DNA of 64,000 nucleotides from a virus (Duplodnaviria; Caudoviricetes): IMG/VR virus record IMGVR_UViG_3300033407_000009, positions 6,269 through 70,268 of that record; one strand, 5' to 3'. The number at the start of each line of letters is the position of its first letter. Position 1 is the first letter of the stretch. Made by a program: the position numbers and the translations under genes. The notes beneath the pieces are model-generated. The model was given only the letters and a program-made list of their open reading frames with translations. It was not told the origin of the DNA and did no database searches. Of the stretch, positions 3,122 through 35,067 are shown piece by piece.

Positions 3122-3621
3122 GACAGTGCGGTTTTGTGGAATTTATTCTGGCAGTGGCGACAAATGATCACGGAATCGAGCGGTGCCTCGGATATTGTCG
3201 AATTTCTCGTGCGTCCGCCGCAGTGTGGACAACGTATCGATGCGCTTTGGTAGATCCAGAATCCCGCCAGCCAGAGGATCGGATTGAGGATCACGGCCAA
3301 GATAAATCCGTCGAAACTGCCGCCACTCCCGGCAGCCGAGCCCCACAGCCCCAGCAATGCAGTTATGATTCCCGCCGGCAACATCCAGCCCGAGCGCCCC
3401 CCCGTTGGGAATTGGCCCCCGTGCCCAGCCCAACCACCGCCTGTCCGGTTCCGGCTGGTTCCGGCTGGTTCCGGCTGGTTCTCTCGGACTACCTGGGGTT
3501 TCTCCTGCTCTACCGGATTGCGTGGCGGTTCTGTTGCTGCGAGCGGTTCGGCTGTCGTGTACGCGACAATACATCCGGTTGCGATCGCAGCGATGATGAA
3601 GCAGTAGGCCAGGATGATCAC
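3118..3621 (-). CDS. membrane protein with C-terminal zinc ribbon
   Basis: N-terminal hydrophobic helix, two further TM segments, CPHC...CRHC; overlaps neighbours by ATGA-type coupling. Confidence 0.6.
   Translation of the reverse strand: MIILAYCFIIAAIATGCIVAYTTAEPLAATEPPRNPVEQEKPQVVRENQPEPAGTSRNRTGGGWAGHGGQFPTGGRSGWMLPAGIITALLGLWGSAAGSGGSFDGFILAVILNPILWLAGFWIYQSASIRCPHCGGRTRNSTISEAPLDSVIICRHCQNKFHKTALS
3451..3480. repeat. tandem 10-bp repeat (CCGGCTGGTT)x3 inside the membrane-protein ORF
   Basis: Three exact units, preceded by a partial unit ccggtt at 3445-3450. Confidence 0.9.
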
Positions 3622-3842
3622 GTCACTCTCCTCACTACCTTTGGTTTCGGTTTCGCATTCTCCTTACGCTTGATCTCCAGTCCAAAGTATTTCACCAGCG
3701 TGTCGACCATCTTCTGCGAGAACGCTCGCTCCCCTTTGGCGCAGCGGTAGAGGGCCGTGTAATGAAGGCCGGTGCGGCGCGCCAATTCCCGGTAGGTGAA
3801 CCCGGATTCAGATATGAGCCGTCTCAATTCGTCGGTGAGCAT
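3618..3842 (-). CDS. XRE/Cro-CI family HTH repressor
   Basis: LRRLISESGFTYRELARRTGLHYTALYRCAKGER...VDTLVKYFGL is a typical HTH_3 pattern. Confidence 0.85.
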   Translation of the reverse strand: MLTDELRRLISESGFTYRELARRTGLHYTALYRCAKGERAFSQKMVDTLVKYFGLEIKRKENAKPKPKVVRRVT

Positions 3843-3848
3843 GCAGCG

Positions 3849-3879
3849 AGTTTAGTCGGGCGTTGCTGGCGTGTCAACA
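3849..3879 (-). promoter_or_regulatory. sigma70-like promoter of the XRE gene (leaderless) with overlapping operator-like sequence
   Basis: Minus strand reads TTGACA-17bp-TAAACT-6nt-ATG(3842). The -35 lies in an imperfect copy of the palindrome at 30051-30069. Confidence 0.6.
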
Positions 3880-4079
3880 CTCAGCGCATTCAGCGCAATC
3901 GTCTTCACCCCAGAGCTGCGGTCCCCGTAGATATCGACGATCTGGCGGAGCGCGGAACGCAGCCACTCGATCTCGTCACGGAAAAGCTGCACTCGCCACT
4001 CGGCTGTCGCTCGTCCTGAGCGCAGCCGCGCGTTCTCCTCTCGCAGCCACTGATTCTCTCTCCGCAGATCCTCGGTCAT
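3852..4079 (-). CDS. hypothetical coiled-coil protein
   Basis: ATG at 4079 preceded by GGGAGTGAG RBS; LRRENQWLREENARLR heptads. Confidence 0.55.
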   Translation of the reverse strand: MTEDLRRENQWLREENARLRSGRATAEWRVQLFRDEIEWLRSALRQIVDIYGDRSSGVKTIALNALSVDTPATPD

Positions 4080-4083
4080 GTGG

Positions 4084-4732
4084 CTCACTCCCACGGAATA
4101 AACTTCGGCGACTCCCGGCGGCATCACGCGATGTCGTCGGTCATTGAATCAGCCCCATTTTCTTGAGGTATTCGTCTCGTTCCTTGTTGCAGCAATTCCA
4201 GCCTCCCTCAACACGTCCTGTAGCCGCGTTCCAAACGGCTCTGGCTTGAACCACTTCGTCAGCAATTCCCGGCATTCCTTGCAGTGCCTTCGTCGGCTGG
4301 ACGACTTGTCTTTGCCGCAGCGTTTGCAGAAATGATGCTTTACCTGTGGCTGCCGCTGCATGTTTCGCAGGTGGTTGCACTTTGCGCAAGCATGGGCCTG
4401 ATTCATTCGGGCGTTTCCCCCGCCCTCTCCAATCGGATGTCTGTGTTCCAGCGTAGCGAAGGGAGACTCGACGACGATGTCTCCGACGCGGTGTAGCACC
4501 GAGAATGCCTTGATCTTCACCGCGTCAACCGCTCGCACGAGCACTGTCTGCACGCCGCAGAATTCGCACTTGCCGTCGCTGTCGGTCCACAGCTCGAGCA
4601 GTCGATTGCCGCGTCTGGACTGGCGGCGCGCTTTGATGCGCCTACGAGATTCGATGTTGGTCGCAGTGCTGAGTGGCCGATATCCCATCGCTCTCACTCC
4701 CGCGTAATAAACTTCGGCGACTCCCGGCGGCA
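4084..4732. repeat. ~40-bp direct repeat pair (4084-4123 and 4693-4732) flanking the HNH gene
   Basis: ctcactccc-N4-aataaacttcggcgactcccggcggca in both copies. Confidence 0.9.
4149..4688 (-). CDS. HNH endonuclease with extra Cys clusters
   Basis: CEFC...ATLEHRHPIGEGGGNARMNQAHACAKCNHLRN (HNH/McrA-like), then CKRC/CKEC; RBS GGGAGTGAG before the ATG at 4688. Confidence 0.85.
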   Translation of the reverse strand: MGYRPLSTATNIESRRRIKARRQSRRGNRLLELWTDSDGKCEFCGVQTVLVRAVDAVKIKAFSVLHRVGDIVVESPFATLEHRHPIGEGGGNARMNQAHACAKCNHLRNMQRQPQVKHHFCKRCGKDKSSSRRRHCKECRELLTKWFKPEPFGTRLQDVLREAGIAATRNETNTSRKWG

Positions 4733-4737
4733 AATTC

Positions 4738-5607
4738 TCACGCCACGTCCGGCGGCATCTGCCGATTCCTCGTCGAGATCGACCGATCGACGTAATACTT
4801 TCGCATGTCCGGCGTGCGATGTCCAAGGTAATCGCTCACTGCCTCTGGGTGCTCGATGTCCAGTTGCGTCGCCCCCGTCCGGCGAAGCTGCTGCATCGCC
4901 CCGTGCCTGACTCCCGCAATCGCAGTGACGTTGTCCCGCCACCAAACGTACCAGTTGGACTCGTTCGCAAACGGACACTTCAGCACCGGATCCCGCTCCA
5001 GACGCAGCACCAGAGCCAGCGTACGCGGCCGTAGCTGCGGATAGTGGCTGTGGCCGGTCTTGTGCTGCCGGAGCACGACGGCCCCCGTAGGCGTGATCTG
5101 GGAGCGTCTGATCCGCCAGATATCCGACCTTCTAAGTCCGCTGTCATAGACCGCGCAGACCAGCGATTCGCAGTACAGGGCCCGCGGCGTTCCGTCCGGG
5201 AAGTAGCCGACCAGCGCCCGGCAGCGTCGGAGCACGGCCCGCAGCTCGGGAATGGTCCAGGCGGTCGGGCAGGGATCCGGCTTGCGGACACGGCGGACGC
5301 GGCGCGGCCCCTCGACCAGCCCAGCACGGAAGCAGTCTCGCCAGACCATGAGCAAATTCGTCCGGTGGCTGAGGACGGTTCGCTGGGCGTACGTCAATTC
5401 GAGGTGCTGCAGCCAGCGGCTGACCTGGTCGTCTTCCAGATCCAAGAGCTTGGCCGGGCGTCCCAGCCATTCGCCAAAGAGCCGGACAGTGCGCCCCAGC
5501 TGGTATTCGGTAGTGGCTGCCAAGCTGCGATACAGGCTGTACCGCGCGATGTGCGGAAGGATTTCTGACACGGATTTTGCCCCGGTTGTGCCCCGCAAAC
5601 GGTGCAC
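4738..5607 (-). CDS. int: tyrosine recombinase/integrase
   Basis: DSGLRRSDI (Arg I), HKTG (Lys), QQLRRTGAT (HxxR variant), YLGH and YY (catalytic Tyr); upstream core-binding helices. Confidence 0.9.
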   Translation of the reverse strand: MHRLRGTTGAKSVSEILPHIARYSLYRSLAATTEYQLGRTVRLFGEWLGRPAKLLDLEDDQVSRWLQHLELTYAQRTVLSHRTNLLMVWRDCFRAGLVEGPRRVRRVRKPDPCPTAWTIPELRAVLRRCRALVGYFPDGTPRALYCESLVCAVYDSGLRRSDIWRIRRSQITPTGAVVLRQHKTGHSHYPQLRPRTLALVLRLERDPVLKCPFANESNWYVWWRDNVTAIAGVRHGAMQQLRRTGATQLDIEHPEAVSDYLGHRTPDMRKYYVDRSISTRNRQMPPDVA

Positions 5608-5770
5608 TTCCGAGGCTACCAGAGTGGCTATGTTCTTCCGTGTTTCCTCGCGCCTCCGCGGTCCAGTTCTCCAAAATCAGCGTGAATTGTAACGGTCAGC
5701 GAGACCCTGCAGGTGCTACGCCTGACAACCCTTCGGGACTGAGGTGTTCGGGAAAAATGAGCGGATTCTG

Positions 5771-5844
5771 CGGGGTGTGGCTCAGCCTGGTAGAGCGCCT
5801 GCTTCGGGAGCAGGAGGTCGCAAGTTCAAATCTTGTCACCCCGA
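5771..5844 (+). tRNA. trnP: tRNA-Pro(CGG), CCA not encoded
   Basis: Acceptor CGGGGTG/CACCCCG, D arm GCTC/GAGC, anticodon stem CCTGC/GCAGG with loop TTCGGGA, T arm GCAAG-TTCAAAT-CTTGT. Confidence 0.95.
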
Positions 5845-5851
5845 CTGTTTA

Positions 5852-5879
5852 TTGCAAGCCGCAAATCAGCATGTACAAT
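5852..5879 (+). promoter_or_regulatory. sigma70-like promoter of the xis-like gene (probably leaderless)
   Basis: TTGCAA-16bp-TACAAT, ATG 8 nt downstream. Confidence 0.55.
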
Positions 5880-5887
5880 AGCGAGGC

Positions 5888-6106
5888 ATGAGCGAGATGG
5901 CAACAGTTCCTGGCTACTACACGATGGACGAGGCCGCCGATGTCCTGAAGGTTTCGGTGAGCCAGATCTCCCGGTACATCTCGGCCGGACGGATGCCGGC
6001 CATCGACCTTGGCAGGCAGAAACTCATTGAGCAGCACGTGGTTCACACGTTTGAGAAGCCGCCAATCGGGAACCCGCAATTCCGCGAGCGGGCAAAAAAA
6101 TCCTGA
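5888..6106 (+). CDS. excisionase-like HTH (HTH_17/MerR-like) DNA-binding protein
   Basis: YYTMDEAADVLKVSVSQISRYISAGRMPAIDLG pattern; next to integrase and tRNA. Confidence 0.8.
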   Translation: MSEMATVPGYYTMDEAADVLKVSVSQISRYISAGRMPAIDLGRQKLIEQHVVHTFEKPPIGNPQFRERAKKS

Positions 6107-6123
6107 TTCTTTCCGAACTCCTC

Positions 6124-6151
6124 TTGCAAGACGCATTCTGAGTTGCATAAT
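6124..6151 (+). promoter_or_regulatory. early rightward promoter
   Basis: TTGCAA-16bp-CATAAT, same architecture as the promoter at 5852. Confidence 0.6.
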
Positions 6152-6181
6152 GTCCTGGTGTTGACGCACTGGGACTCAAAG

Positions 6182-6211
6182 GCCCGGTGCAAATGAGCAC
6201 CGGGCTTTTTT
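6182..6211 (+). terminator. intrinsic terminator/attenuator just downstream of the early promoter
   Basis: GCCCGGTGC-aaatga-GCACCGGGC followed by TTTTTT. Confidence 0.8.
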
Positions 6212-6301
6212 CGTTTGGTAGCCCGGTGCGACGAAATCGGAGTTCGTCACCGGCCCGGCCGGTGCGAAGGAGTTCACCGGCTGATGTTTCTCAAATGCGT
6301 G

Positions 6302-6450
6302 TCATGGAATCGCGTGGTTTCCTAGGGGTGCTCGCAGCCCCCATGGCGAGAAGTCGCACGGCCCAATGTGCCGCGCGAGCCTCTCGCCGAATCCCACAAA
6401 TGCCGGATGAATGGGCCGGCAAGTTCCGAACCCGCCACGCGATTCCATGA
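6302..6450 (+). ncRNA. putative tracrRNA-like scaffold for the Cas12f-like protein
   Basis: Closed by a perfect 16-bp inverted repeat (6302-6317/6435-6450). Contains GCTCGCAG (6330-6337), complementary to the repeat end CTGCGAG+C, and AGTTCCGAACCC (6422-6433), complementary to repeat GGGTTTGGAACT with one G:U. Confidence 0.65.
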
Positions 6451-6471
6451 TGTGCATTTTTGTTTTTCTTT

Positions 6472-6488
6472 GGTTTGGAACTGCGGAG
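6472..6488 (+). repeat. solo fragment of the CRISPR repeat abutting an RBS
   Basis: GGTTTGGAACTGCG (14 nt identical to the repeat) followed by gagAAAGGA and ATG at 6502. Confidence 0.8.
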
Positions 6489-6501
6489 AAAGGACGAACG
6501 C

Positions 6502-7002
6502 ATGACCACGAAAACCACCTCACAAAAGCACGCTCATCTGAAGTCTCTCGCCAAGAAGAATCGTCTCGATGTCTACGAGATGATCCGCCTGGCCAGCGAC
6601 ATTCTTGCCGACCACGAGTACGTCGATTCGCTGGGAGGCGAGGCGGCGGTGCTCGACATGCTGGCCGCTGATGAATTCGCGCACTTTCCCACGCGCCCAG
6701 CCGTCAAGACGATGGTCGACGCGTATCGCGCCAACCCCGATCGCAAGACCTGGAAAGAATACGCATACAGCACGGAGGCGATGGTCGAGCTGGCCAAGCC
6801 GGAGAAGTTGAAGCCCGAAGGAGATCGCACCGACTGGAAGGCATTGGCGAAGGAACGGGAAGCTCGCGTCGCCGAGTTGGAGGCAGTGGTGGCAGACCTT
6901 CGGGCGCGATGCAGCGAGTTGTCTACTCGCGTCGAGGAATTGCTCGGCGTGAATGGCGAACTGCGTGGACGGATCAAGGCGCGACACGAAATGATCGCGT
7001 GA
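6502..7002 (+). CDS. hypothetical protein with C-terminal coiled coil
   Basis: RBS AAAGGA; heptad-rich C-terminus; first gene of the operon. Confidence 0.65.
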   Translation: MTTKTTSQKHAHLKSLAKKNRLDVYEMIRLASDILADHEYVDSLGGEAAVLDMLAADEFAHFPTRPAVKTMVDAYRANPDRKTWKEYAYSTEAMVELAKPEKLKPEGDRTDWKALAKEREARVAELEAVVADLRARCSELSTRVEELLGVNGELRGRIKARHEMIA

Positions 7003-7017
7003 AAAGGAGGTGCCAAG

Positions 7018-8154
7018 GTGAGCGATGGAATTGCAGTGCTCAAACTGAAGGTTACATCGTCGTCAGTCGACCTAGAGCCGGTCGCCGAGATGTGCCGCAA
7101 GGCTCGCAATATGGCTGTCATTGATTGGCTGCTGCGTCAGAAAGGAATGCCACCATCAGAGAGGCAGTCAAAGCGGCATATCAAGCGCAAAGACAAGGCA
7201 GCTGACGCCCCGACGTCTGAATCGAACAAGATTTATCACGCCATCCGGGACGCCGTACCAGCCTTGTCGGCAGACGTGGCATCATCGCTTTCTCAGGCGG
7301 TGAATAGCTATCTCGGCGGCAAGATGGACTGGCGCGAAGGCAAGAGCGAGGACGGCAAGAGGCCGCGCAGGAGAGATGCCATTGCGGAATTCAGGATGAG
7401 GGCTCCGTTCGCGACGGCCTTGGAAATTCCACTTGCCAACAAGAATGTCACGCTGGCATTCACCGACACGATGACCGTCAGGGTGCGGCGAGTGCTGACC
7501 GGCGAGCCGGATATCGAGTTGGTGTTGTCGACCCGGAACATGCCTGCTGGTATCAAGCTGCTAATCCGAGACGTGATCGACGGTCGGAAGAAGCTGGCCG
7601 ATTCGAAGCTGATCCTTCGCCAGGAAAGCTGGTACGTCCATCTGCCTATCTCATGCCCCGCTGTCCCACTTGATCCCGAGCGCGTGGCAACTCTATCGCC
7701 GATCCAGGGAGATGGCCGCTACGACCGACCGTTCCGTCTGAAGCTGCCCAACCAAAATCGCGAGATCGGAGACGGCTGGTACTTGAAGAGCCAGGCGGAG
7801 CGATTCGTGGGATTGCGAAAGCAGATTGGGTGGCGCTACCGGCAGCGCCAGGGAGCCGGACACGGCCGCAAGAAAGCGGACGCGGCAGTGCGTAAGCGCA
7901 TCAAGCAGTTTGCCGACATTGTGTCGGAGGTCAGGCGGCGCATGATCCGGGACATCGTGTCGTGGTGCGAGCGGCGGCAGTGCGGACTGCTGGTCTATCA
8001 CGAGCCGACGTTGCCCCTCAGGACGAAGTGCTGGTTTGCGGCGAATGGCGTGGATTGGGATTGGACTCGGTTTGTCGGCGACTTGGAAAACTCCTGCAAG
8101 CGAAATGGCATTCGGCTCGACAAGCGGCAGCTGAAGCTAAAGGACGTCGCATGA
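7018..8154 (+). CDS. cas12f: Cas12f/TnpB-family protein, predicted nuclease-dead and C-terminally truncated
   Basis: Collinear with Cas12f1 as recalled: KIYHAIR..LSADVASSLSQAV (REC), SWYVHL..LDPERVATLSP (RuvC-I GIDLG, Asp lost), GAGHGRKK (conserved GHGR), GLLVYHEPT (RuvC-II), WDWTRFVGDLENSCKRNGI. Ends before the Zn finger/RuvC-III. GTG start with AAGGAGG; adjacent CRISPR array. Confidence 0.8.
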   Translation: MSDGIAVLKLKVTSSSVDLEPVAEMCRKARNMAVIDWLLRQKGMPPSERQSKRHIKRKDKAADAPTSESNKIYHAIRDAVPALSADVASSLSQAVNSYLGGKMDWREGKSEDGKRPRRRDAIAEFRMRAPFATALEIPLANKNVTLAFTDTMTVRVRRVLTGEPDIELVLSTRNMPAGIKLLIRDVIDGRKKLADSKLILRQESWYVHLPISCPAVPLDPERVATLSPIQGDGRYDRPFRLKLPNQNREIGDGWYLKSQAERFVGLRKQIGWRYRQRQGAGHGRKKADAAVRKRIKQFADIVSEVRRRMIRDIVSWCERRQCGLLVYHEPTLPLRTKCWFAANGVDWDWTRFVGDLENSCKRNGIRLDKRQLKLKDVA

Positions 8155-8441
8155 AAGCGTTGCCGTGCGCGTGTTGCGCAAGGGAAGTGCGTATCCGGGA
8201 TCGGTCACGATTCTTACGGATGGTGCGCGAGCGACGCCAACCGCTGTGCGAGCAGTGCCGTCGCTACGTAAGAGGGGGGGTCGCTCGCATCGCGCAAGTC
8301 CCTGGAGAGCATGATGATCCGAAGTTGTTCCTGGTCAGGGGTCGTGGAAAACACGCACGCAAGAGGAAGGCTCTCGCAAGTCAGCCTCTGGCGCGTGTCT
8401 GCGCAACGGCTTGCGAGGCCGGAGTCGCAGTGGATGAGTGA
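8151..8441 (+). CDS. small zinc-ribbon protein translationally coupled to the Cas12f-like gene
   Basis: ATGA overlap; CACC...CEQC; stop codon lies inside CRISPR repeat 1. Confidence 0.5.
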   Translation: MKALPCACCAREVRIRDRSRFLRMVRERRQPLCEQCRRYVRGGVARIAQVPGEHDDPKLFLVRGRGKHARKRKALASQPLARVCATACEAGVAVDE

Positions 8442-8647
8442 AGGGTTTGGAACTGCGAGCCGGTCCCACCAGCGATACCGCCAGCCGCGGAATCGTCGCA
8501 GTGGATGAGTGAAGGGTTTGGAACTGCGAGCAAAGGTTGACTGCGATGCGAGAAATCATCTAGTCGCAGTGGATGAGTGAAGGGTTTGGAACTGCGAGCG
8601 CCTCGCAGGATGGCGCAGTGGATGAGTGAAGGGTTTGGAACTGCGAG
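8424..8647 (+). CRISPR. mini CRISPR array: 4 x 36-bp repeats GTCGCAGTGGATGAGTGAAGGGTTTGGAACTGCGAG, spacers of 35, 32 and 13 nt
   Basis: Repeats at 8424-8459, 8495-8530, 8563-8598 and 8612-8647 (last has T2G). Terminal inverted TCGCAGT/ACTGCGA. No cas1/cas2 in the window. Confidence 0.95.
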
Positions 8648-8723
8648 TACGAACTGTGCCCCCAGGTGGGAGTACGTATCCCGCCGAAGCTGGTGGCACG
8701 AGCACAAAAGGAGGCGATTTAAA

Positions 8724-9095
8724 ATGTCCCATGATCATCACAAGGCCGCCGTCAAACACATCCTTCGGCGCGTCGTGGAGTCTGGCGATTTCCGCTGGTA
8801 CATGTTGCATACCGAGAGTTTTTCGTTGTGCCTGGCGGCATATGCAGAGGATCTCGGCATCACGAAGGAAGAGGCGGAGAGGCAACTCGACGTAGCCATG
8901 TCGCGGTACGACCCTAGACAACCCCTCGTCGAAGAGCAGCGGCTACAGATTGAGCGTGCCTCCGAGGTGATATACGAGATGCGAGAGGGTGGCAAGCTCG
9001 ACGAGGAGACATGGAGTGATATCTACAACGCACTTCACAGCGAGCCACCGCCGAAGCTGGTGGCACGAGCGATTGCGAACGAGAAAGGACTCTGA
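8724..9095 (+). CDS. hypothetical protein flanked by a 23-bp direct repeat
   Basis: RBS AAGGAGG; CCGCCGAAGCTGGTGGCACGAGC at 8681-8703 and 9048-9070. Confidence 0.7.
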   Translation: MSHDHHKAAVKHILRRVVESGDFRWYMLHTESFSLCLAAYAEDLGITKEEAERQLDVAMSRYDPRQPLVEEQRLQIERASEVIYEMREGGKLDEETWSDIYNALHSEPPPKLVARAIANEKGL

Positions 9096-9098
9096 CCA

Positions 9099-9293
9099 AT
9101 GCCTATCGAGCAACACACCGTCTACGTCGACCTGCGATTTACCAAATCGTCCATCAAGATCCTCGAAGACTTTGCCATCGTCATTCGACTGCTCGTCGAT
9201 TTGCGCGAGGACATGCCGTGGCGAGCCGACGAGATCGACGAGGCGGGGGAAGCGATGAAGCGATTGGTGGAGCAGTTGCGAGCGGATGGGTGA
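9099..9293 (+). CDS. hypothetical protein
   Basis: In-operon ORF. Confidence 0.55.
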   Translation: MPIEQHTVYVDLRFTKSSIKILEDFAIVIRLLVDLREDMPWRADEIDEAGEAMKRLVEQLRADG

Positions 9294-9320
9294 GAAATAG
9301 AAACCACTAAGGAGGTAATC

Positions 9321-9512
9321 ATGCTCGTGCTCAGCAGACGACAGTATGAAGGCGTAACCATAGGCGAAGGCGATAGTGCGGTCCACGTCGAGGTTGTCGA
9401 GATCATGAGATACAAGGTGCGACTTGGATTCACTGGACCGGATGGCGTCCCCATCCATCGCGATGAAGTTGTGGAATATAGGCGACGGAAGGAGGGCGAC
9501 GATGCAACTTGA
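9321..9512 (+). CDS. csrA: CsrA/RsmA carbon storage regulator homolog
   Basis: MLVLSRR..EGVTIG...VEVVEI...KVRLGFTGPDGVPIHRDEV matches the CsrA consensus; RBS AAGGAGG. Confidence 0.92.
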   Translation: MLVLSRRQYEGVTIGEGDSAVHVEVVEIMRYKVRLGFTGPDGVPIHRDEVVEYRRRKEGDDAT

Positions 9513-9843
9513 AGCCGGGAAATACTACCGAACCCGCGACGGCAGGAAGGCGTTTGTGGGGTATGTCCAGACGGACATCGACAATCGCTCGTTCTTTGGT
9601 CACATCGTCATAGATCAGCACAAATACCAACCGCACTGCTGGTTCGAGAATGGTGGCGGAAGATCGCACCCCGACAGGTCCGACCTCGTCGAAGAGTGGC
9701 GCGAGCCGGTGACGCGGGAAGTTTTCTTGCTCAGGAGCCAATACAGCGGCGACACGGTTGTTGCCGGCCACGAGGGACAGCGCGGCTGGGAAGTCATCGC
9801 CAAGTTCACCATCACCGAGGGAGAGGGGATGACGGATGACTGA
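9502..9843 (+). CDS. hypothetical phage protein (GKYYRTRDGRKA motif family)
   Basis: Recurrent phage N-terminal motif; RBS GGAGG. Confidence 0.6.
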   Translation: MQLEAGKYYRTRDGRKAFVGYVQTDIDNRSFFGHIVIDQHKYQPHCWFENGGGRSHPDRSDLVEEWREPVTREVFLLRSQYSGDTVVAGHEGQRGWEVIAKFTITEGEGMTDD

Positions 9844-10497
9844 CACCCAATACACCATCGCCATCAACCGCATGACCCGCCGCGCCGAATCCGCCGAGCG
9901 CCGAGCCGAGCGATTGGAACGCGAGTTGGCAGCGACGCGAGAGGTGGCCGCCGAGCTGTATCGACTCTGCCGCGGAGCGTGGGTGATTACGGAGGCACGA
10001 AACGACAGGTAAATGCAGATGACCGAATCAGAACGCGACATAGTCCTGAATCGACTGGATGAATATCCGGCTGGTGTGCCGCCTGAGTCCTGGGGGTACG
10101 GCCCAATGGAGGACGCAGATCCTGCCGAATGCTCGCGAGAGGAGCTGCTCGAATACGGATGACCAGCAGTGTACCTAGCCCTCGGTCGAGTGGACGTTGG
10201 TGACGATTGGGATACGGCGATCAGTGACATTGCTGAGGCATGTCGCTGGAGCGTACCGGAATATCTGAATTCGCTCTTCCGTGATCCGAAGCGCGTGGCG
10301 GAAAGGTTGCGAGTGAGGTAATGCGAGCCACCAAAGAGAACTGCGAGCGTGCCGTGGGATGGCTGAAGGTGATCCAGAATCGCCTAGCCAATGAGGATGC
10401 GTATGGCCATCAGATAATCGAGGAAGTAGCCGAATTCCTCACCGCCGCGCATCGACAACTGCCATCCGAGGCGACATTCGAGAGCGGAGAGGAGTGA

Positions 10498-10761
10498 ATG
10501 ATGGGACGACTTCAGAAAAAGCTTGTGGCGAAAACAGGCAGCAAACTCAGCCAGCACATTGGCGACCAGCTGTTGAAGGCCAGACGCAAGAGAGATGTAA
10601 CCATGCGGCAGGTTGCTGACGGCGCAGGGCTTTCGCCCACATTTGTTTGCGACTTGGAAAACGGCAGAATGTCGCCTGGTGCAGAGACGCTGTGGCGGCT
10701 GAGCCAGTATTTTGAAGTGCCGATTGGGTATTGGTTCAAGGGGTACACGGGGAGCGAATGA
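10498..10761 (+). CDS. XRE-family HTH protein
   Basis: LLKARRKRDVTMRQVADGAGLSPTFVCDLENGRMSP. Confidence 0.9.
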   Translation: MMGRLQKKLVAKTGSKLSQHIGDQLLKARRKRDVTMRQVADGAGLSPTFVCDLENGRMSPGAETLWRLSQYFEVPIGYWFKGYTGSE

Positions 10762-11195
10762 ATTCGTGCAGCCGAACGAATCGGCGTAGACAGGAGAAAC
10801 AAATGGGTAGCCACTCGGATTTCGACCATTCGTTGGAGTCGCGGCGACGCGACTTCCTGAAGGAATTGGGACTGCGTGCGGAGTTGATGGCCGACTTGGG
10901 GATGAACGCAGAGCAGCGTGGCAAGCCTCTCGCGTCATGGACTCACGACGGGATGCGGTGCCAGCTGCTGCAAGACGACCGGCAAGGGATTCTGCGAATC
11001 AGCATTGGCGGTGGAGACGACCTGCCTGTTCTCGGCGACTACTGCAATTTTCGTGGTGACGTCGGGAAGTGCATTCGGCTACTGGAAAGAACGATTGACG
11101 CACTGCGGCATTGCCCAGAGCAAGCGTGAACCAAGAAGGCCCGCAGCCGATTTGCAAAGATCGAGTGAATCAAACCAGCCCGAAAGACGAGGGAA

Positions 11196-11666
11196 ATGAT
11201 GGCAACAACTGAACAATCTTTTGTAGATCACATTCTGGTTGGCCACGACGGACCGTGCCTTGTCTGCAGTGGACCTCGCAGTTACCGGGCGTGGACTGAC
11301 GTCAACGGCCAGTGCTACTGTCTGGCGTGCGGCTGTACCTACCAGATTCTCGGCTGCCACTTCAGACAGGAATTCCTAGACAAGCACGGAATCATGAAGG
11401 AGCGAGTGGCCAGGGAATACTGCGACTGCTTCGAGGGATTGGAAGTGTTCCGAGCGTACTGGAGCGAAGTGGGCAAAATGATGCCTTTGGGTTCATTCAT
11501 CGGACGCTCGCCGTATTTGGGCGACCAGCGTCAATCGTGGGGGCGGTGGCTGGCTGAGAACCGAGAACGATTTCGAGACAACGAATATTTCAACTGGGAC
11601 AGCATCATCGCGTGGCATGAAAAACAACGCCCCCATGACGGCCCGCAGCCGAACGAATCGGCGTGA
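11196..11666 (+). CDS. hypothetical Cys-rich protein
   Basis: CLVC...CLACGC; RBS GAGG. Confidence 0.6.
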   Translation: MMATTEQSFVDHILVGHDGPCLVCSGPRSYRAWTDVNGQCYCLACGCTYQILGCHFRQEFLDKHGIMKERVAREYCDCFEGLEVFRAYWSEVGKMMPLGSFIGRSPYLGDQRQSWGRWLAENRERFRDNEYFNWDSIIAWHEKQRPHDGPQPNESA

Positions 11667-11768
11667 TCGCGGGGAAGGATAACTGCCCGGCCGGCAGGGA
11701 GGCCGGCGTGGGTGGGGGAGATCGTAGTTCAAAATCGCGTGGCATGAAAAACAACAAGGGAGACACAC

Positions 11769-12056
11769 ATGAATCCGAAAGTAGTGGTGACAACGAAGCA
11801 CCGCGGAGTCTTTTTCGGCGAGCTGATCGAGAGAAACCGCACTGAGCACGGCACCGAAGTCGTGCTGGCAGACGCTCGTGTCTGCATCTACTGGACGCAG
11901 GAGACTTGCGGCTTTGTCGGCCTGGCGGCGACGGGGCCGTTGGATGGGTGCCGCATCAGTCGTGCTGCTCCGCGACTGGAGGTGCTCGACGTGACGTCGA
12001 TTCTGACTTGCAGCGAAGAGGCCATCGCAGTATGGGAGGCCAGCAAATGGAATTGA
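11769..12056 (+). CDS. conserved phage protein (DUF6948-like)
   Basis: VVVTT..RGVFFGEL...LADARVCIYW...GFVGLAATGP...SRI pattern, typically upstream of Gly-rich repeat genes. Confidence 0.6.
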   Translation: MNPKVVVTTKHRGVFFGELIERNRTEHGTEVVLADARVCIYWTQETCGFVGLAATGPLDGCRISRAAPRLEVLDVTSILTCSEEAIAVWEASKWN

Positions 12057-12739
12057 CCCAACGCATGCTGCAGCGTGCCTGGACGGCCGGTGCATGTCGC
12101 GAGGCTATTGCACAGCTGAAAGTCGGGCAGCCGCTCCCAGGCGTGCTGGCTGATTATCTCGGCTGGTGTAAGCACGCGATTCCGCCGACCGAAGTAGACG
12201 CAATAGCTCGCTCGCTGTCAAACGATCGTGTCGTGGAGCTGGATGGGATCCATCCATATGTGCTCGGCTCTCACGGCTACGGCGACGGCTCCGGCTCCGG
12301 CTACGGCTACGGCAACGGCTCCGGCTACGGCTCCGGCTACGGCTACGGCTCCGGCTACGGCTCCGGCTCCGGCTCCGGCTCCGGCTACGGCTACGGCTCC
12401 GGCTACGGCTACGGCTACGGCTACGGCTACGGCTCCGGCTCCGGCTCCGGCGACGGCTACGGCGACGGCTACGGCTCCGGCGACGGCTCCGGCTACGGCG
12501 ACGGCTACGGCTCCGGCTCCGGCTACGGCGACGGCTACGGCTCCGGCTCCGGCTACGGCTACGGCTACGGCTACGGCGACGGCTACGGCTCCGGCGACGG
12601 CTCCGGCTCCGGCTACGGCTACGGCTCCGGCTCCGGCTACGGCTACGGCAACGGCTACGGCTCCGGCTCCGGCTCCGGCTCCGGCTACGGCTACGGCGAT
12701 GGCTACTGCGAATCGGTTTTGGAGAAGGTTCTTGGCTGA
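12047..12739 (+). CDS. Gly/Tyr/Ser/Asp-rich low-complexity repeat protein
   Basis: Short N-terminal domain (AGACREAI) then ~145 aa of G-Y/G-S/G-D dipeptides. Confidence 0.8.
   Translation: MELTQRMLQRAWTAGACREAIAQLKVGQPLPGVLADYLGWCKHAIPPTEVDAIARSLSNDRVVELDGIHPYVLGSHGYGDGSGSGYGYGNGSGYGSGYGYGSGYGSGSGSGSGYGYGSGYGYGYGYGYGSGSGSGDGYGDGYGSGDGSGYGDGYGSGSGYGDGYGSGSGYGYGYGYGDGYGSGDGSGSGYGYGSGSGYGYGNGYGSGSGSGSGYGYGDGYCESVLEKVLG
12275..12708. repeat. hexamer-unit microsatellite (GGCTAC/GGCTCC/GGCGAC/GGCAAC)n
   Basis: Visible directly. Confidence 0.95.
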
Positions 12740-19736: not shown

Positions 19737-20536
19737 TGGTTCTCGACAGCAAAATCGACATCGTCCGGGACGCTTTCAACATTCATCGTCTGGACGACTG
19801 GACGCGAGTTGAGACGGACGACATTGTCGCGCTGCACGGCGTGGGGGACGTGACGCTCCAGCACATCCGTCTCTATCTGGCAGGCCAAGGCCGAACACTG
19901 CACAACGACCGCACGCCCGGCTACTGGCTGGACCATCTCGGCACGGCCAAGGTGGGGCAACAGATCAGCGATGAGGACAAGTCGATCATCTTCCCGTGCG
20001 CCGTCCTGATCGACACCGCTGAGACGCAGCCGTTCACCTTCCATGGCCTGCGATGCGATGCCGACCAGCAGCATCGGCCGCTCATCGTCAAGACGGAATG
20101 GCGAGCACTTGGCCGGCATCCCGACTCGTTGGGCGACTATTCCCTGGACGGCTACGTCGGCCGCTGCCATGTCGAGCGGAAGTCCGTGAAAGACTTCCAG
20201 GGGACATTGATGGAGTTCGGCCAAGACGGGCGCCGCGAGCGTTTCGAGAGCGAGCTGTCGAACCTGGAGAAGCTCGAAGCAGCGGCCGTCGTCGTCGAGG
20301 GGACACTGCTGCGAGCGATCACCGTCCAGCACGAATACGGCAAGAAGCCTAGCCAGGAAGCGGCCAAACTGCTCATGCGATCAGTGCTCGCCTACCAGCA
20401 GGATTACGACGTACCCTGGCTGTTCTGCGACGATCGACGCATGGCCGAGGTTGCCACGTTCCGGTTTCTGGAGCGATTCTGGAGGAAGGATCAGGAGAAG
20501 AGGAAAGAAGCAGAGAGGATGTTGGCGGGGATTTAG
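19736..20536 (+). CDS. ERCC4/XPF-family nuclease (probable junction resolvase)
   Basis: VLIDTAETQP, GDYS, VERKS, VVVEG motifs; N-terminal HhH-like LHGVGDVTL; GTG start with GGGGAGG. Confidence 0.85.
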   Translation: MVLDSKIDIVRDAFNIHRLDDWTRVETDDIVALHGVGDVTLQHIRLYLAGQGRTLHNDRTPGYWLDHLGTAKVGQQISDEDKSIIFPCAVLIDTAETQPFTFHGLRCDADQQHRPLIVKTEWRALGRHPDSLGDYSLDGYVGRCHVERKSVKDFQGTLMEFGQDGRRERFESELSNLEKLEAAAVVVEGTLLRAITVQHEYGKKPSQEAAKLLMRSVLAYQQDYDVPWLFCDDRRMAEVATFRFLERFWRKDQEKRKEAERMLAGI

Positions 20537-20564
20537 TGCAGCGGATGAGGTTTGGAACTGCGAG
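20536..20564 (+). repeat. solo degenerate CRISPR repeat upstream of the primase
   Basis: GTGCAGCGGATGA-GGTTTGGAACTGCGAG equals the array repeat with an internal ~6-nt deletion; the last 16 nt are identical. Confidence 0.9.
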
Positions 20565-20614
20565 AACTGAGCCACGGATTCGCCACAGGGAGTGGCAAGG
20601 ATTGGCGGGGATAA

Positions 20615-29391: not shown

Positions 29392-29704
29392 GGCAAACCC
29401 CTCGAGTGTGAGAACAAAAGGGCGAAAACGATTTCCGCCGCCGCATGAAGTACCCGTTGTCGCCGCGAAAATTTTCATCCGCTGGCGGCAATCAAGAGAT
29501 CCGCTGGCGGCAATCGCTGGCGGCAATCCCTAACCAGGTGTGGGCTAGGTGGCATCCCTGGTGAGATTTGGGTGAAAAATCCCGCAAGTCTAGTACCCGT
29601 TTGGGTTTGCGAGATTTTCTGAAAATCAGAGGATCGGCAACGGGTACTGACTGCAAGAGCGGACCACGTCGGGACCGCTCAAAGACTCACATGGGGAGAT
29701 TCAG

Positions 29705-30080: not shown

Positions 30081-30196
30081 ACCAACGTGAACACGACCGA
30101 ACCACAACGAACCACGCGCGGCCCTAGTACGCTCTGCGCTACTCGCGCTGGTCGTGTTCACCCTAGGGCCGCGCATTTTTCCATTGGAGGTGAACC

Positions 30197-30715
30197 ATGG
30201 AAACCACGACGCGAGAAGAGTTTGCAAGTCTCTACCCCCTCATCCGCCACATTGCCCGCCGGCGGATCACGCGCAGTCTGGCACTGGCCGGAATCTCCAA
30301 TCCAACCGAGCTCCAGGATCGACTGGACAACGCGATAGCTCACTCGTGGGTGCTCTACTGCCGCCATCGGCCGACAATGGAGTCGGCCCGGGAATGTGCG
30401 GTCAAGGCCGCCAGTCTGGCTGCGCGCAAGACTCACCTAGTCGGTGGCACCCGCCGGCCCGGCTACGTCGACGCGATGGATCGGAGGGATTTCCGCAAGG
30501 TGGATCTGTCCACCGTCCCAGTCGACACCGAGCTCCGCCAGCGGGACGATTCAGACGCCCAGTCTCGGCTACTCGACTCACTCCCGGCTGTCCTTCGGCC
30601 GATCGCTGTACTGCTGATGGCAGGCCTATCACGTGTCGAGATTGCCAGACGGCGGCACTGCTCGCCAGCCACGATTACCCGCCGCTGCGATTCGATCGCC
30701 GAGTTGATCGGGTAG
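30197..30715 (+). CDS. ECF/sigma70-like factor (region 4 HTH)
   Basis: LLDSLPAVLRPIAVLLMAGLSRVEIARRRHCSPATITRR (sigma r4) with a region-2-like N-terminus; RBS GGAGG. Confidence 0.7.
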   Translation: METTTREEFASLYPLIRHIARRRITRSLALAGISNPTELQDRLDNAIAHSWVLYCRHRPTMESARECAVKAASLAARKTHLVGGTRRPGYVDAMDRRDFRKVDLSTVPVDTELRQRDDSDAQSRLLDSLPAVLRPIAVLLMAGLSRVEIARRRHCSPATITRRCDSIAELIG

Positions 30716-30739
30716 ACTGGGGACGTCGGCTGTTCCTCT

Positions 30740-30775
30740 AACCCCGTACTGGCTAACGTTGGTGCGGGGTTTTTC
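30740..30775 (+). terminator. intrinsic terminator
   Basis: AACCCCGTAC...GTGCGGGGTT then TTTT. Confidence 0.7.
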
Positions 30776-31072: not shown

Positions 31073-32630
31073 CCTGCACTGGGAAATGGGCAGTTGGCAG
31101 GATGCATGCAACCCGCGCCAGGTCTGTAGTCGAGCGTCCACCCCTGTAGTCAACAGCTGCTCTCACTCATGCCGGCATGCATGTCGCACCGAACGGTGAG
31201 TACGTCGTAAGTCCAGGCCCCCACTAGACTAGCAGCACACACGCACACACGCACACGCGTGATTGTGGGGTGTGGCTGGGGTGGCTGGGGGTGTCGCTCG
31301 CAGGCGCGCGAGGGGGGGGCTGGACCAACGCGGCGGCCAAAACCCTGTAGGTACGCTCCCGAGACTCTTTTCCCGAAACCCTTACTGCCAGTCGGTTTAT
31401 ACGGTATTGGTGGCTGTCGAGAAAGCGCGTAGAGACGGCCATTCGACCGTAGGGGTGTCGCTCGTCCCGCAGTGCGTCTTAGGCCGTTTCATCACCACCG
31501 GGGGAAGGCCTGAGATTGGAGTCATCAGGCGACGAGTCTATCGGCGGGTTAGTTTGCCGGTTTGAGGGCTGTAAGCTGTTCCGCCGCGTCCAGCGAGTTT
31601 GAGTGTACCTTGGGTGCTGGGATGTTGGAAAGAGTTCTTCTCGGGGAGGCCGCACTAGAGTGGCCCTTGCTGTGCTCGGCAGCGGATCTGGTGGATGGTG
31701 TTGTCGTATGGTGCTCCGCGGAAGGAGCCGTCTGTCTGGATACCGTCTTGGATTCGCTGGTTTGCGGATTTGGGATCGGCGGCGTAGTGTTCGATGGCCT
31801 GGTTGAGGTGCCACCAGTCGATGGATTCCATGATGGGGTGGTCGCGTCTCCAGAGGATTTCTTTCGCGAGATCTCTGGTTACCGAGCCGATGGTCTCATT
31901 TTTGAGTAGCTCCTCGAGCATTTTGATTGGGAAGATTCCGCCCATGTCATAACGCCTTCCTTTCCATTTCGATTTCCTTGATGGACTTGCCGCAGACTCT
32001 GCACCGTTGGTTGTCGTGGTCCATAGCGTGGCCTACGCAGAAAGACTCGGCCTGTTTTCTTTGAGCTTCGATCTGGTGGACAGAGGCGGGTGTGGCTCGC
32101 TGTGGGCCGGATTCGGGTGGATTTTCCTGCCATTCACCGCACCAGAAGTCTCTGGGTACTTCGGGGAGTTGTGGCTCTGGATTCCCGTAGGAGCCGACGG
32201 CGACGATGGTGGGTGGGAATCGGACACAGGTGAGTCGCGAGGTGTCGCCGATGGGTTTGGCGAAGCGGCAGTTTTGGCAGGATTGGTTCACTTGTCCCAC
32301 CTTTCCCACTGGCCGCACCAGTCAAATTTGTGCGTTATTGGCCAGCATGTCGTGAAGTCGTCAAGGGGAACCAAAGTCGTTTGGCAGCGGTGATTGGGCG
32401 TGAATATGGTGGACGGAGGGTTCAGACGGCAGTACCCTTTCTCTTCAAATTCCTGCGAGTAGAACCTGCAGGTGCAGCAGATCTGGGGGGTGGCCTCGCG
32501 CTGCGACTCGGGATGGTTTCGGATGGCGTGGTAGGGGTCGATGTTGAAGTCGCTCATCCGGCCTCCTTCGACAGGTTCCTCTTCCCGAGAGTGTAGTGGA
32601 TTGTTGTAATGTGGGGAAAGGAGAAAGCTG

Positions 32631-32930
32631 ATGCAACGCAGATCATTCTTGAGTAGCGTGTTTGAGTTGTTGGGTGGGCTGTGCTGGTGGAGGAAGGCGG
32701 AGGCTGATACGACGAGCGTTCACTGGGTTGCCAAGAGGCGAATCGAGCCAATTGCCGATGTCGAGAAGCGTTTTGGCGTAAAGTTGAACGAGCTCGGCTA
32801 TTGGGCAGACATTCCGTGTTGTGATTGCCAGGATGGGCACGACATGACGATGAAGGTGTGGATCTGGAATCCAGGCCAGCAGGTCGGTGTGTCTCCACTA
32901 CAGTCCATGCTTGGCAAGGAGCCTCATTGA
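32631..32930 (+). CDS. protein with twin-arginine-like leader
   Basis: MQRRSFLS...AEA; RBS AAGGAG. Confidence 0.55.
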   Translation: MQRRSFLSSVFELLGGLCWWRKAEADTTSVHWVAKRRIEPIADVEKRFGVKLNELGYWADIPCCDCQDGHDMTMKVWIWNPGQQVGVSPLQSMLGKEPH

Positions 32931-33102
32931 TCCGCCACCTAGACACCGAAAACGCGCGCAAGATCACCTCGGCCCTGGCCGCGTTGGAAGACTTGTTGCG
33001 CAAGGCGGTGAGCGAGGGGGATATCAACGCGGTGAGTGTGCGGGTGCCGGTGAATCACCGGAAACTCGGGAAGGTTCGAGTGGTTGTGGAGCGGGAATTG
33101 AC

Positions 33103-33248
33103 TTGACTAAAGTCCAGAAACTTCCCACCATTTCCAGTAGGTGATTTGGAACTGCGAGCAGTAGCGGGTGGTAAGGCCACCCGAACTCACCAGCGTTAGC
33201 GGACACGAAAACCCGCGGCTGCCTTTCATGGCGGCTGGCGGGTTTTTT
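33103..33248 (+). ncRNA. putative stand-alone crRNA-like small RNA (promoter + solo repeat fragment + hairpin + terminator)
   Basis: TTGACT-17bp-CACCAT; TTTGGAACTGCGAGC at 33145-33159; hairpin CGGGTGG/CCACCCG; terminator AACCCGCGGCTGCC...GGCGGCTGGCGGGTTTTTT ending at 33248. Confidence 0.6.
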
Positions 33249-33632
33249 CGTTCTTGGAGGGCACCCGTGGCTCTCATGCTGTCATGGCTGTTGGGGTTTG
33301 TTGCACGGGACGTCTATGTGCGAGTGGACTTCATTGAGCGAAACCATGCCCGCAATATCGATCAGTATGTGTTCTGGGACATCCACCGAGACGGGATGTA
33401 CCACGTCGTGGCCTGGCGGCTGGCCGAGAAGTGCGGATCGATCACGAGGACAGGAACCGGCTGGGATCTCCGCTGGCGCGAAGGCGGGATGAGGTACTCG
33501 GCAAGGGGGACGTGCTACCGGGAAACCTGGACGCGCCAGGATGTGGAGTTGGCCGATAGGGAGTTCTTTCCGGAGCACGAGCGCCGGGGATTGCGATAGT
33601 TGGGGCCATGACTTTACAAGGAGATCAATTGC

Positions 33633-33995
33633 ATGTCGGAAGTAACTTCCCACAAGGTGAATGGATTGAACGAATTGCTTCGCATTGAAGTGCTGGACGA
33701 TCCTGGTCCCGGAAACGCCTGCCACCAATATTCTATCACCCCCACCATTGGCAACGCCTCTGGTGTCAGGATTGATTTTCAGAAAGGACCTCTCAAGGAA
33801 AGCCCTCCCAACGGATTGAGCAACGAGTCGCTCCTTGCCATCGTCGAGCATCGCTTGCAGGGATTCCAGTCCGGCATTTATGCCTGCCGTGAGAACGCGC
33901 TGGCGTTGACGAAGATTCAAGAGGCGATGCACTGGCTTCACCACCGAACTCGCGAGCGAGTCGCCCGTGGAGTCGAGGGCACATCACAGAAGTAA
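33633..33995 (+). CDS. tad1: Tad1-family anti-defence sponge protein
   Basis: GPGNACHQY...FQKGP.KE...NG...LLAIVEHRLQGFQSG.YACRENALALTKIQEAMHWL..RT.ER..RGVEGT is collinear with Tad1 as recalled. Confidence 0.85.
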   Translation: MSEVTSHKVNGLNELLRIEVLDDPGPGNACHQYSITPTIGNASGVRIDFQKGPLKESPPNGLSNESLLAIVEHRLQGFQSGIYACRENALALTKIQEAMHWLHHRTRERVARGVEGTSQK

Positions 33996-34215
33996 CCTGG
34001 CCACCCGGACGGCTACACAATGGATCTCGACGAATTGGTTCGCAAGTCGATCGACGAGTTGACGGAGATGCAACCGGGCATAGATCCGGCGTCTTCGCAT
34101 GGGCGGGCGGACGCGATCCTGCTGTCCGTCCTGGAGGCCGATCACCTGGAGGGCGTGGCGGCTGCCTGGCGCAGCGCCCAGTCGAGGGTGGGATTTCTTT
34201 ACGAGTGAGGCTGTC

Positions 34216-35067
34216 ATGCTGCAAGAGAAGCTCTGGTATCTGTCGAAGCTGAACTGGGTGGGGATGCTCACGTTTGTCTCGGGGCTGCTGGCCTGGCTGA
34301 TCGGGCAGGACCTGATTGCCGATCACCCGCAATTGGTGTCCGCGCTGACGATGCTGCTGGGGTTCATCGTATTCGTCTTGAGGACGATCACGAAACAGCC
34401 TGTCACGTTCCAGGCGGCCAAGGGCAAGTGGTGCCTGATTCCGCTGGCTGCGTTGTTGATGATTCCCGGCACTTCGTACGCGCAGGATCGTCAGTACCTG
34501 AACATCACAGGCCTTCCGGCGGGGGACTATCATCTGCGGATCAATTCTGATGGGAGTACGGCGACGGTCCCTTTCCGGCTGATCGAGATCGGGAGTACCC
34601 CGCCGCCCATCGATCCGGGCGATCCGACTCCGACTCTGTCACGCGTCGGCCAGACCGTCTTCGCCTTGTGCCGCCAGTACAACCTCGACAAGGCTACCGT
34701 CGCGGAATTATCCGCTATCTACGAAGCCGCCTCTTCGCGCACCGATGCGTCCCTGACCGCGGTGTTCGAGACCGTGCGCGGTATGACGGACGCCTTGCTG
34801 GCCATCCGCGGTAAGTCGCAGGAGTTCGCCGCGTTCCGGGAAGACTTGACCAACCAGGTGAATACTCCGGAGATCACCTCTGGCCGGTACACGCACGCCA
34901 CCTTCGCCGAAGTAGCCGAGGGAATGAGCGCGCACGCCGACGAGCAGGCGATCAGCGCGGACAAGATCATTCGGGTATTCATGATGGTGCTGGACACGCT
35001 CATCAGTGGAGAGCGTCTGACGATTCAGAAGATCATCGAGATTATGGTGGCATTACTGGGGCCGTGA
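34216..35067 (+). CDS. holin-like/membrane protein with soluble C-terminal domain
   Basis: KLWYLSKLNW followed by 2-3 TM helices. Confidence 0.5.
   Translation: MLQEKLWYLSKLNWVGMLTFVSGLLAWLIGQDLIADHPQLVSALTMLLGFIVFVLRTITKQPVTFQAAKGKWCLIPLAALLMIPGTSYAQDRQYLNITGLPAGDYHLRINSDGSTATVPFRLIEIGSTPPPIDPGDPTPTLSRVGQTVFALCRQYNLDKATVAELSAIYEAASSRTDASLTAVFETVRGMTDALLAIRGKSQEFAAFREDLTNQVNTPEITSGRYTHATFAEVAEGMSAHADEQAISADKIIRVFMMVLDTLISGERLTIQKIIEIMVALLGP

Follow-up and report, generated by a model that had tools for sequence, protein, structure and literature searches.

A short piece of phage DNA upstream of a tad1 homologue carries what is best, if tentatively, read as an orphan crRNA-like unit: a lone 3' part of a CRISPR repeat (33145-33159) that would partner the phage's own tracrRNA-like RNA and its predicted nuclease-dead Cas12f-like protein and direct DNA binding without cutting. 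We infer the transcription, loading, and target of this unit, and the reading is given a probability just short of even. It is directly supported, at the level of sequence, by the identity between the unit and the array repeats, the predicted pairing with the tracrRNA-like RNA, the cognate protein of the same phage, and the recurrence of such units in other phages. The source is an IMG/VR virus record of 70,268 nt, rated 70% complete; the window, which is the whole stretch of 64,000 nt analyzed here, makes up most of that record. Features of the window are collected in Table 1.

Table 1. Features of the window in positional order, with the details or methods that identify them.
Feature	Position	Strand	Details
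tracrRNA-like structured RNA	6296-6462	+	hairpin loop GCTCGCAG (~6329-6336) and anti-repeat (~6419-6433), both complementary to the handle
Third, partial copy (12-mer + GG)	6472-6488	+	directly follows the tracrRNA-like RNA; 14 nt upstream of the first ATG in the operon
Partner ORF, ~166 aa	6502-7002	+	coiled-coil-like; first gene of the operon
Truncated Cas12f-like protein, 378 aa	7018-8154	+	lacks the RuvC-I aspartate; PADLOC, PDB profile, family alignment
Zn-ribbon ORF	8151-8441	+	CxxC...CxxC; ATGA-coupled
Mini-array	8423-8648	+	4 repeats; spacers of 33, 30, and 11 nt
Second solo unit	20536-20565	+	near-complete repeat, 6-nt internal deletion; ERCC4-gene stop codon to 50 nt before the primase-helicase ATG
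Upstream ORF	end 33106		stop codon overlapped by the possible promoter
Possible promoter (candidate)	33103-33131	+	TTGACT (33103-33108), 17-nt spacer, CACCAT (33126-33131); read from sequence
Decayed remnant of the repeat 5' part	33134-33144	+	CCAGTAGGTGA; scattered identities to repeat positions 9-22 (alignment)
Solo crRNA handle	33145-33159	+	last 15 nt of the array repeat; exact copy
Guide-like segment	33160-33183	+	hairpin 33165-33183, loop TAAGG/AAG
Intrinsic terminator	~33208-33250	+	G+C-rich stem and T run; pattern scan and folding
Next ORF, 110 aa (ORF110)	33267-33599	+	GGAGGG, then GTG
tad1 (Thoeris anti-defence 1) homologue	33633-33995	+	PDB, PHROG, Pfam

A solo repeat handle upstream of tad1

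From 5' to 3', the unit consists of the TTGACT boxes, CACCAT, the remnant CCAGTAGGTGA, the handle TTTGGAACTGCGAGC, a hairpin, a terminator, GGAGGG, and a GTG at 33267. As the original prediction had claimed, the handle TTTGGAACTGCGAGC on the + strand matches the 3' end of array repeats 1-3 at 15 of 15 positions, including the C that follows those repeats. TTGACT is present twice (33098-33103 and 33103-33108), and the second copy stands 17 nt 5' of CACCAT. The boxes and spacing of the predicted promoter, TTGACT-17 bp-CACCAT, are therefore in place, but it was not called by a promoter scan because the -10 box agrees with the consensus at only 3 of 6 positions. The stand-alone status of the unit rests on this weak promoter, and the unit may be the 3' UTR of the upstream operon.

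The predicted 7-bp hairpin was confirmed by folding, and the strong intrinsic terminator by folding and pattern scan. The hairpin (19 nt) consists of seven Watson-Crick pairs and one G-U pair, and the RNA fold of 33136-33252 (z -3.85) is more stable than all 200 shuffles. A transcript of ~110 nt is predicted from the unit; hairpin and terminator would give this RNA a defined 3' end, which, together with a tad1 gene 383 nt downstream, supports its reading as an orphan guide. In Rfam only a tRNA-Pro exceeded the gathering threshold, and the region 32900-33400 gave chance-level matches alone. A megablast search of 32000-35000 against phage records returned no match, so no close relative of the region was found.

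The genes that follow the terminator include a confirmed tad1. Its product matches PDB entries for Tad1 (Thoeris anti-defense 1; E 1.9e-20), PHROG 2428 (E 1.4e-30), and the Pfam Acb2_Tad1 hairpin (E 4e-5). The ORF between terminator and tad1 (33267-33599) is without a match in Pfam, PHROG, NCBIfam, and PADLOC. The distances first estimated, 24 kb to the array and ~390 bp to tad1, held up: the handle lies 24.5 kb from the array, and 383 nt separate the end of the terminator from the tad1 start codon (33633). The placement of the unit at the start of the late region is only approximate, since recognizable head genes begin at ~38.4 kb; the next genes are ORF110 and tad1, and the first recognizable head and packaging genes lie ~5 kb past them. 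The unit heads the ORF110-tad1 anti-defence block, and this position suggests a part in anti-defence or in silencing of the host.

The same layout recalls the late leader of phage lambda (PR'/6S-tR'), where a short terminated RNA is made until a phage antiterminator lets RNA polymerase into the late genes. On this explanation a constitutive promoter would produce a short leader of the same kind, and the repeat fragment would be there by coincidence. The boxes resembling a promoter, the ~110-nt leader, the strong terminator, and the long co-directional block reaching the head genes are all what such a leader would show. However, the 15-nt identity and the other solo handles are left unexplained, the genes directly downstream are of tad1 type rather than structural, and no Q-like gene was identified, all of which makes a lambda-type leader most improbable.

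Beyond the array, a 12-mer of the handle occurs three extra times (6474, 20551, and 33145), in every case on the + strand and intergenic or at a gene junction, exactly as first reported. The exact 14-mer occurs six times forward and never in reverse in the 70-kb record, and a reversed-pattern control gave no match. When up to three mismatches are allowed, nine matches are found where 1.9 are expected, and none of 100 shuffles reaches nine. Because of this forward-only count of the exact 14-mer and a mismatch count above that of all shuffles, chance is excluded as the source of the 15-nt identity. A fourth copy at 29598-29614 (29601), GTTTGGGTTTGCGAG, was rejected as a cognate handle, its pairing with the anti-repeat being no better than that of shuffles. 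The family handle consensus fits this + strand sequence, which is intergenic and lies within a 9-bp inverted repeat. The two solo units of the window (at 33145 and 20536) are each followed by a hairpin with a purine-rich pentaloop, TAAGG (33165-33183) and AGGGA (20582-20596); such hairpins are reminiscent of nut/boxB sites, and nothing comparable is present at the solo units of a related phage, G004.

The copies have decayed unevenly. In the alignment of the 33145 unit, the 5' 22 nt of the repeat are nearly unrecognizable and the 3' part is kept at 15 of 15 positions; the unit at 20536-20565 retains 14 of the 15 handle positions, and the fragment at 6472-6488 keeps 12 handle nucleotides. A non-functional relic, left by array recombination or by a past mobile copy, might look decayed in just this way, with the hairpin and terminator merely ending the upstream operon. 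The array itself appears decayed (irregular spacers and a handle-like piece in spacer 2), as does the 5' half of the 33145 unit, and neither a target (as an exact 20-mer in IMG/VR) nor a close relative was found that would show conservation. Against a relic, decay affects only the part that is not needed for tracrRNA pairing, and does so in two independent units (15/15 and 14/15); moreover, the pattern recurs in three other phages with different handles, always on the coding strand. A relic is accordingly held to be improbable, and the one-sided decay, which spares the segments predicted to pair with the tracrRNA-like RNA, supports the reading of the unit as an orphan guide.

The Cas12f-like protein and its tracrRNA-like RNA

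PADLOC identifies the product of the ORF at 7018-8154 as Cas12f (E 2.8e-7), and the profile of its family matches only Cas12f structures in the PDB, among them 9nzq (E 2.3e-8), AsCas12f (~1e-7), and the "nuclease-deactivated Cas12f" 9n9c (E 4e-5). The family includes ~70 protein clusters with 37-51% identity to the window protein; their lengths range from 374 to 453 aa, save for one truncated at 247 aa. The RuvC-I aspartate of 9nzq aligns to a serine in the window protein, and this column holds no conserved aspartate among 33 aligned family members, all of which end before the zinc finger. By homology, loss of the RuvC-I aspartate, and C-terminal truncation, the window protein is predicted to be a nuclease-dead Cas12f. 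Phage genes surround every family locus examined, and the family is known only from metagenomic phage contigs. An exact-peptide search of IMG/VR with the Cas12f-like protein gave no match, a profile search yielded six loci, and a search across 185,579 species genomes turned up no relative of it.

The Cas12f-like gene is the second of three in its operon. An ORF of similar size (164-176 aa) precedes the Cas12f-like gene in L001, L003, L017, L018, and L019, a likeness of size and position only, and a small overlapping ORF comparable to the Zn-ribbon ORF is found in L001, L005, L017, and L018. The Zn-ribbon ORF at 8151-8441 has no database match. The three-gene layout (~166-aa ORF, Cas12f-like gene, and Zn-ribbon ORF) has same-sized counterparts in several relatives, and neither small protein has a family match in the searched libraries. 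A link between the dead Cas12f and a sigma factor was considered for the ORF at 30154-30741 and dropped, as this ORF has no Pfam or PHROG match at E 0.001. No adaptation genes were found in the window.

The array of the window is irregular: a handle-like CTGCGATGCGAG lies within spacer 2, and the last repeat differs at both ends. Given the irregular spacers, the Cas12f-like system of this phage may be decaying. Repeats of the relatives are homologous to the window repeat, and their number varies from 13 regular repeats (L003) to a single one (L001). Four loci (L003, L004, L007, and L008, at ~11400-12380) share the same 13 spacers in the same order on contigs from three samples, and the static array is in keeping with the missing adaptation genes.

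The RNA that would accompany this protein is encoded at 6296-6462, directly upstream of the operon. Its fold has a z-score of -5.8, and homologous RNAs are present in seven phages, with 29 invariant columns and six base pairs that show compensatory changes. Within ~5 kb, the handle of each of the seven phages finds its strongest duplex partner at the same place in the tracrRNA-like RNA (z -3.7 to -5.5). Pairing of 6-8 bp is likewise possible, again in seven of seven, between a conserved hairpin loop (CTCRCAG) and the 3' end of the handle of the respective phage. Changes on both sides of this pairing (loop/handle) are seen in L003 (CTCACAG/TTGTGAG) and L017 (AGTCAC/GTGACT), and in L011 a change in the loop gives back a Watson-Crick pair in place of the G-U wobble of L001.

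The handle at 33145-33159 is predicted to make both contacts. Its predicted duplex with the anti-repeat has an energy of -20.3 kcal/mol, equaled by 0.4% of shuffles in segment-wise folding, and has two G-C pairs fewer than that of the array repeats (array repeat 1: -26.1 kcal/mol). Its predicted duplex with the hairpin loop (8 bp, -14.9 kcal/mol) equals that of array repeat 1. These values come from segment-wise tests, which were used because the handle folded against the whole 170-nt RNA did not separate from shuffles. The two predicted contacts together span the last 15-17 nt of the repeat, exactly the part kept at 33145-33159. As a prediction, this defines a handle of 15-17 nt as what the miniature effector needs from a guide.

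In the mechanism proposed for the unit, transcription would run through 33134-33250, starting at the weak TTGACT/CACCAT promoter or reading through from the upstream operon, and would end at the terminator. The handle would pair with the tracrRNA-like RNA twice, through TTTGGAACT(GC) with the 3' anti-repeat and through CTGCGAGC with the conserved hairpin loop, a pairing predicted from sequence with support from co-variation. The truncated Cas12f-like protein, whose first RuvC aspartate is missing, would then take up this duplex, and the sequence starting at 33160 would guide it to bind DNA but not to cut it. Its target would most likely belong to the host or to a rival element rather than to the phage.

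Target searches for the guides, and handles in related phages

The guide that starts at 33160 has no seed match of 10-12 nt or longer elsewhere in the 70-kb phage. Nor does any seed of at least 10 nt starting at guide positions 1-3 recur elsewhere in the window. In these searches of the phage, no PAM-flanked protospacer came up, nor a PAM-proximal partial match (at least 9 nt) to the promoter of a cas or toxin gene. Exact 20-mers of this guide and of spacer 1 are absent from IMG/VR, and the window guides have no self-targets in the phage. Among the loci compared, the handle-flanking "guides" of L017 and the array spacers of L003, L005, L006, and L011 match themselves alone. In L011, spacer 7 of the complete G005 (9717-9746) shows a 16-nt perfect match on the opposite strand to 2106-2121, 7.6 kb upstream (blastn-short E 0.001), which may be a partial self-target or chance.

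Several observations stand against the unit being an orphan guide. No guide of the phage has a protospacer in the phage or as a 20-mer in IMG/VR; guide bases 6-24 form a stable hairpin, an unusual trait in a functional guide; the promoter is weak; two G-C pairs are lost; and the array is irregular. In addition, regular arrays without any solo handle are found in three family members (G001, G002, and the complete G005). The original proposal of a dedicated guide for the dead Cas12f is the best fit to the two-site tracrRNA pairing, the cognate protein in the genome, and the co-varying handles; a target for it is what the searches of the phage and IMG/VR did not supply.

Solo handles that match the local repeat are present in three other family members, on the coding strand and at gene junctions. 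The 73.7-kb G004, with a protein 45% identical, carries its own handle twice at remote sites, ~42 and ~50 kb away from its arrays; one copy lies over a start codon and the other in a 5' UTR behind a terminator-like hairpin. Its handle pattern has 17 matches on the cas strand, none on the other strand, and none in controls. In L001, a handle copy lies 8 nt before the cas12f ATG. L017, a 136-kb contig, has 18 handle matches against 0.19 expected, all on the + strand, which is the coding strand. The "array" after its Zn-ribbon ORF (ena:ERZ27249683:k141_749410, 500-12500) consists of bare 17-nt handles with spacers of 18-27 nt, two of them identical. At least 13 more handles occupy intergenic gaps of L017, five times as tandem pairs, and they fill nearly every intergenic gap of an 8-kb stretch. 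An SD-like AAGGTG lies within the L017 handle, whose 3' end is 0-2 nt short of a start codon in three copies. That solo handles follow each phage's own repeat argues for a function and for use by the phage's own system.

Such use need not involve DNA. Handles in phage transcripts might act as docking sites in cis, through which the tracrRNA and dead Cas12f would bind phage mRNAs, the "guide" being an ordinary leader; this is the main rival reading, unlikely though far from negligible. At 33145, docking could govern how the upstream message is processed or whether transcription passes the terminator into ORF110-tad1 and the genes after it; elsewhere it could affect translation or stability of the downstream gene. 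In its favor, solo handles stand at gene junctions and in 5' UTRs on the coding strand in four phages, including the often tandem L017 copies and those just before the first gene of the system's operon (6472-6488) and the L001 cas12f gene. The lack of an external target for any guide in the phage and among exact IMG/VR 20-mers points the same way, as do the purine-rich pentaloop hairpin after both window solo units and the position of the 33145 unit directly 5' of a strong terminator.

Other observations weigh against docking in cis. To our knowledge, regulation at the RNA level by a Cas12f-tracrRNA complex has no precedent. Translational occlusion cannot apply at 33145, because the terminator stands between the handle and the next ribosome-binding site. 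Intergenic, same-strand placement is also expected of any insert that must be tolerated and transcribed, and the three family members named above do without solo handles. A broader proposal, in which the tracrRNA and dead Cas12f would form a CRISPR-derived regulon acting on the phage's own transcripts, is doubtful. In such a regulon, handles would dock mRNAs for control of processing, read-through, or translation, or leaders would act as guides that clamp their source gene; the 33145 unit would control whether transcription passes the terminator and enters the tad1 block and late genes.

The unit might also act on a host enzyme as an RNA anti-CRISPR, either as a Racr-type decoy of a host Cas12f or its tracrRNA or as a Cracr-type RNA that reprograms a host Cas12f to silence its own locus. 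Such a role would fit a viral repeat unit that stands alone behind a possible promoter, like the solitary repeat units of PMC10651486, and an adjoining anti-defence gene, tad1, as Racr candidates co-localize with acr genes (PMC10651486). For types V-A and I, hijacking of host Cas proteins by viral crRNA-like RNAs has been documented (10.1101/2024.10.29.618823). However, a type V-F case is absent from both of these reports, the handle is identical to the phage's own array, and solo handles track the own repeat across divergent phages. A decoy against host Cas, which had been the other original suggestion, is not needed, because the phage carries the matching protein and tracrRNA; the carrier envisaged for such a decoy is without cas genes, and this phage has its own Cas12f-like gene along with an array and a tracrRNA.

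Searches for a matching host system gave no support to an RNA anti-CRISPR either, and this role is given little probability. No array with the window repeat was found in the metagenome collection by a 20-mer scan, in which exact and close matches are detectable; one single-copy match was found on an unrelated contig. Likewise, no protein relative was found in the 185,579 species genomes. A 16-mer scan of IMG/VR gave six single matches, about the chance level; the flanks of one (L021) were examined and showed no similarity. A near-full window repeat is present as a single copy (28 nt with three differences) just after an integrase-like ORF at L020:2270-2297 (Ga0181529_10000185), a 91-kb metagenome contig that has nothing further in common with the window. 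In the window, a tyrosine-integrase-like ORF on the - strand adjoins a complete tRNA-Pro(CGG) (4738-5845). The 40-nt 3' part of this tRNA has no exact match in the 185,579 species genomes.

Comparison with known systems

Until now, solitary repeats carried by phages have been interpreted as RNAs that decoy or hijack host Cas proteins. The lone handle of the window is part of a complete Cas12f system, predicted to be non-cutting, that the phage encodes together with its tracrRNA. This arrangement is seen again in the family of ~70 protein clusters. If the solo units are extra guides, these phages would hard-wire and disperse guides without adaptation machinery, probably silencing host or rival genes. 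If they are docking sites on mRNA, CRISPR parts would be newly used for gene control. In either case, a minimal handle of 15-17 nt with two mapped tracrRNA contacts is directly testable with a protein of ~380 aa.

The guide RNAs of Cas12f have a two-site architecture, as seen in the structures of 2021. The window system resembles canonical type V-F (Cas12f1/Cas14) in its 36-37-nt repeat starting with GTYGCAG, in the predicted pairing of the tracrRNA with the 3' part of the repeat at two places, and in a guide located 3' of the repeat. In contrast to the canonical type, the window protein ends before the zinc finger and lacks the RuvC-I aspartate, a Zn-ribbon is encoded by a separate ORF, the window holds no adaptation genes, and guide units are scattered outside the array.

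Racrs and solitary repeat units mimic a host repeat and act on host Cas proteins, and their carrier is without a cas gene (Camara-Wilpert et al. 2023, PMC10651486). The window unit is likewise a single repeat-like unit in a phage, away from arrays, near an anti-defence gene, and perhaps behind a promoter; within the 250 bp upstream in which a Racr promoter is sought, TTGACT-17-CACCAT is present, weak and uncalled by the scan. Unlike Racrs, the unit corresponds to the array, tracrRNA, and Cas12f-like protein of its own phage, and of the repeat it retains just the 3' handle.

CreA and CreR are crRNA-like regulatory RNAs (Shmakov et al. 2023, 10.1101/2023.03.03.530964) whose viral copies are known as Cracr (10.1101/2024.10.29.618823); they belong to types I and V-A and have a defined partial match to a cas or toxin promoter. 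The window unit resembles them as a stand-alone degenerate repeat with a short guide-like segment, and in a predicted Cas loading that would lead to binding or repression rather than cleavage. It differs in that no promoter match was found in the phage, a tracrRNA would be needed, and the effector is phage-encoded and itself predicted to be nuclease-dead.

Nuclease-dead Cas12f homologues include dCas12f-sigmaE and a CRISPR-linked dCas12f cluster (Hoffmann et al., Nature 2026, PMC13472631), alongside the TnpB-derived TldR repressors (10.1101/2023.11.30.569447). The window protein shares with dCas12f and TldR the RuvC mutations and C-terminal truncation, and the best PDB matches of its family profile include dCas12f entries; RNA-guided DNA binding for control of transcription is a feature of dCas12f and TldR. 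In contrast to dCas12f-sigmaE, no sigma-factor gene lies beside the window Cas12f-like gene, whose partner is the ~166-aa ORF without a recognized family. Phage-borne members and dispersed handles are undescribed in PMC13472631.

Viral solitary repeat units and Racrs, crRNA-like regulators with their viral copies, and nuclease-dead Cas12f homologues are thus already described. New here are a solo handle cognate to a phage-encoded, predicted nuclease-dead Cas12f with its own tracrRNA, a minimal handle with two predicted contacts, and the dispersal of such handles at gene junctions across a phage family.
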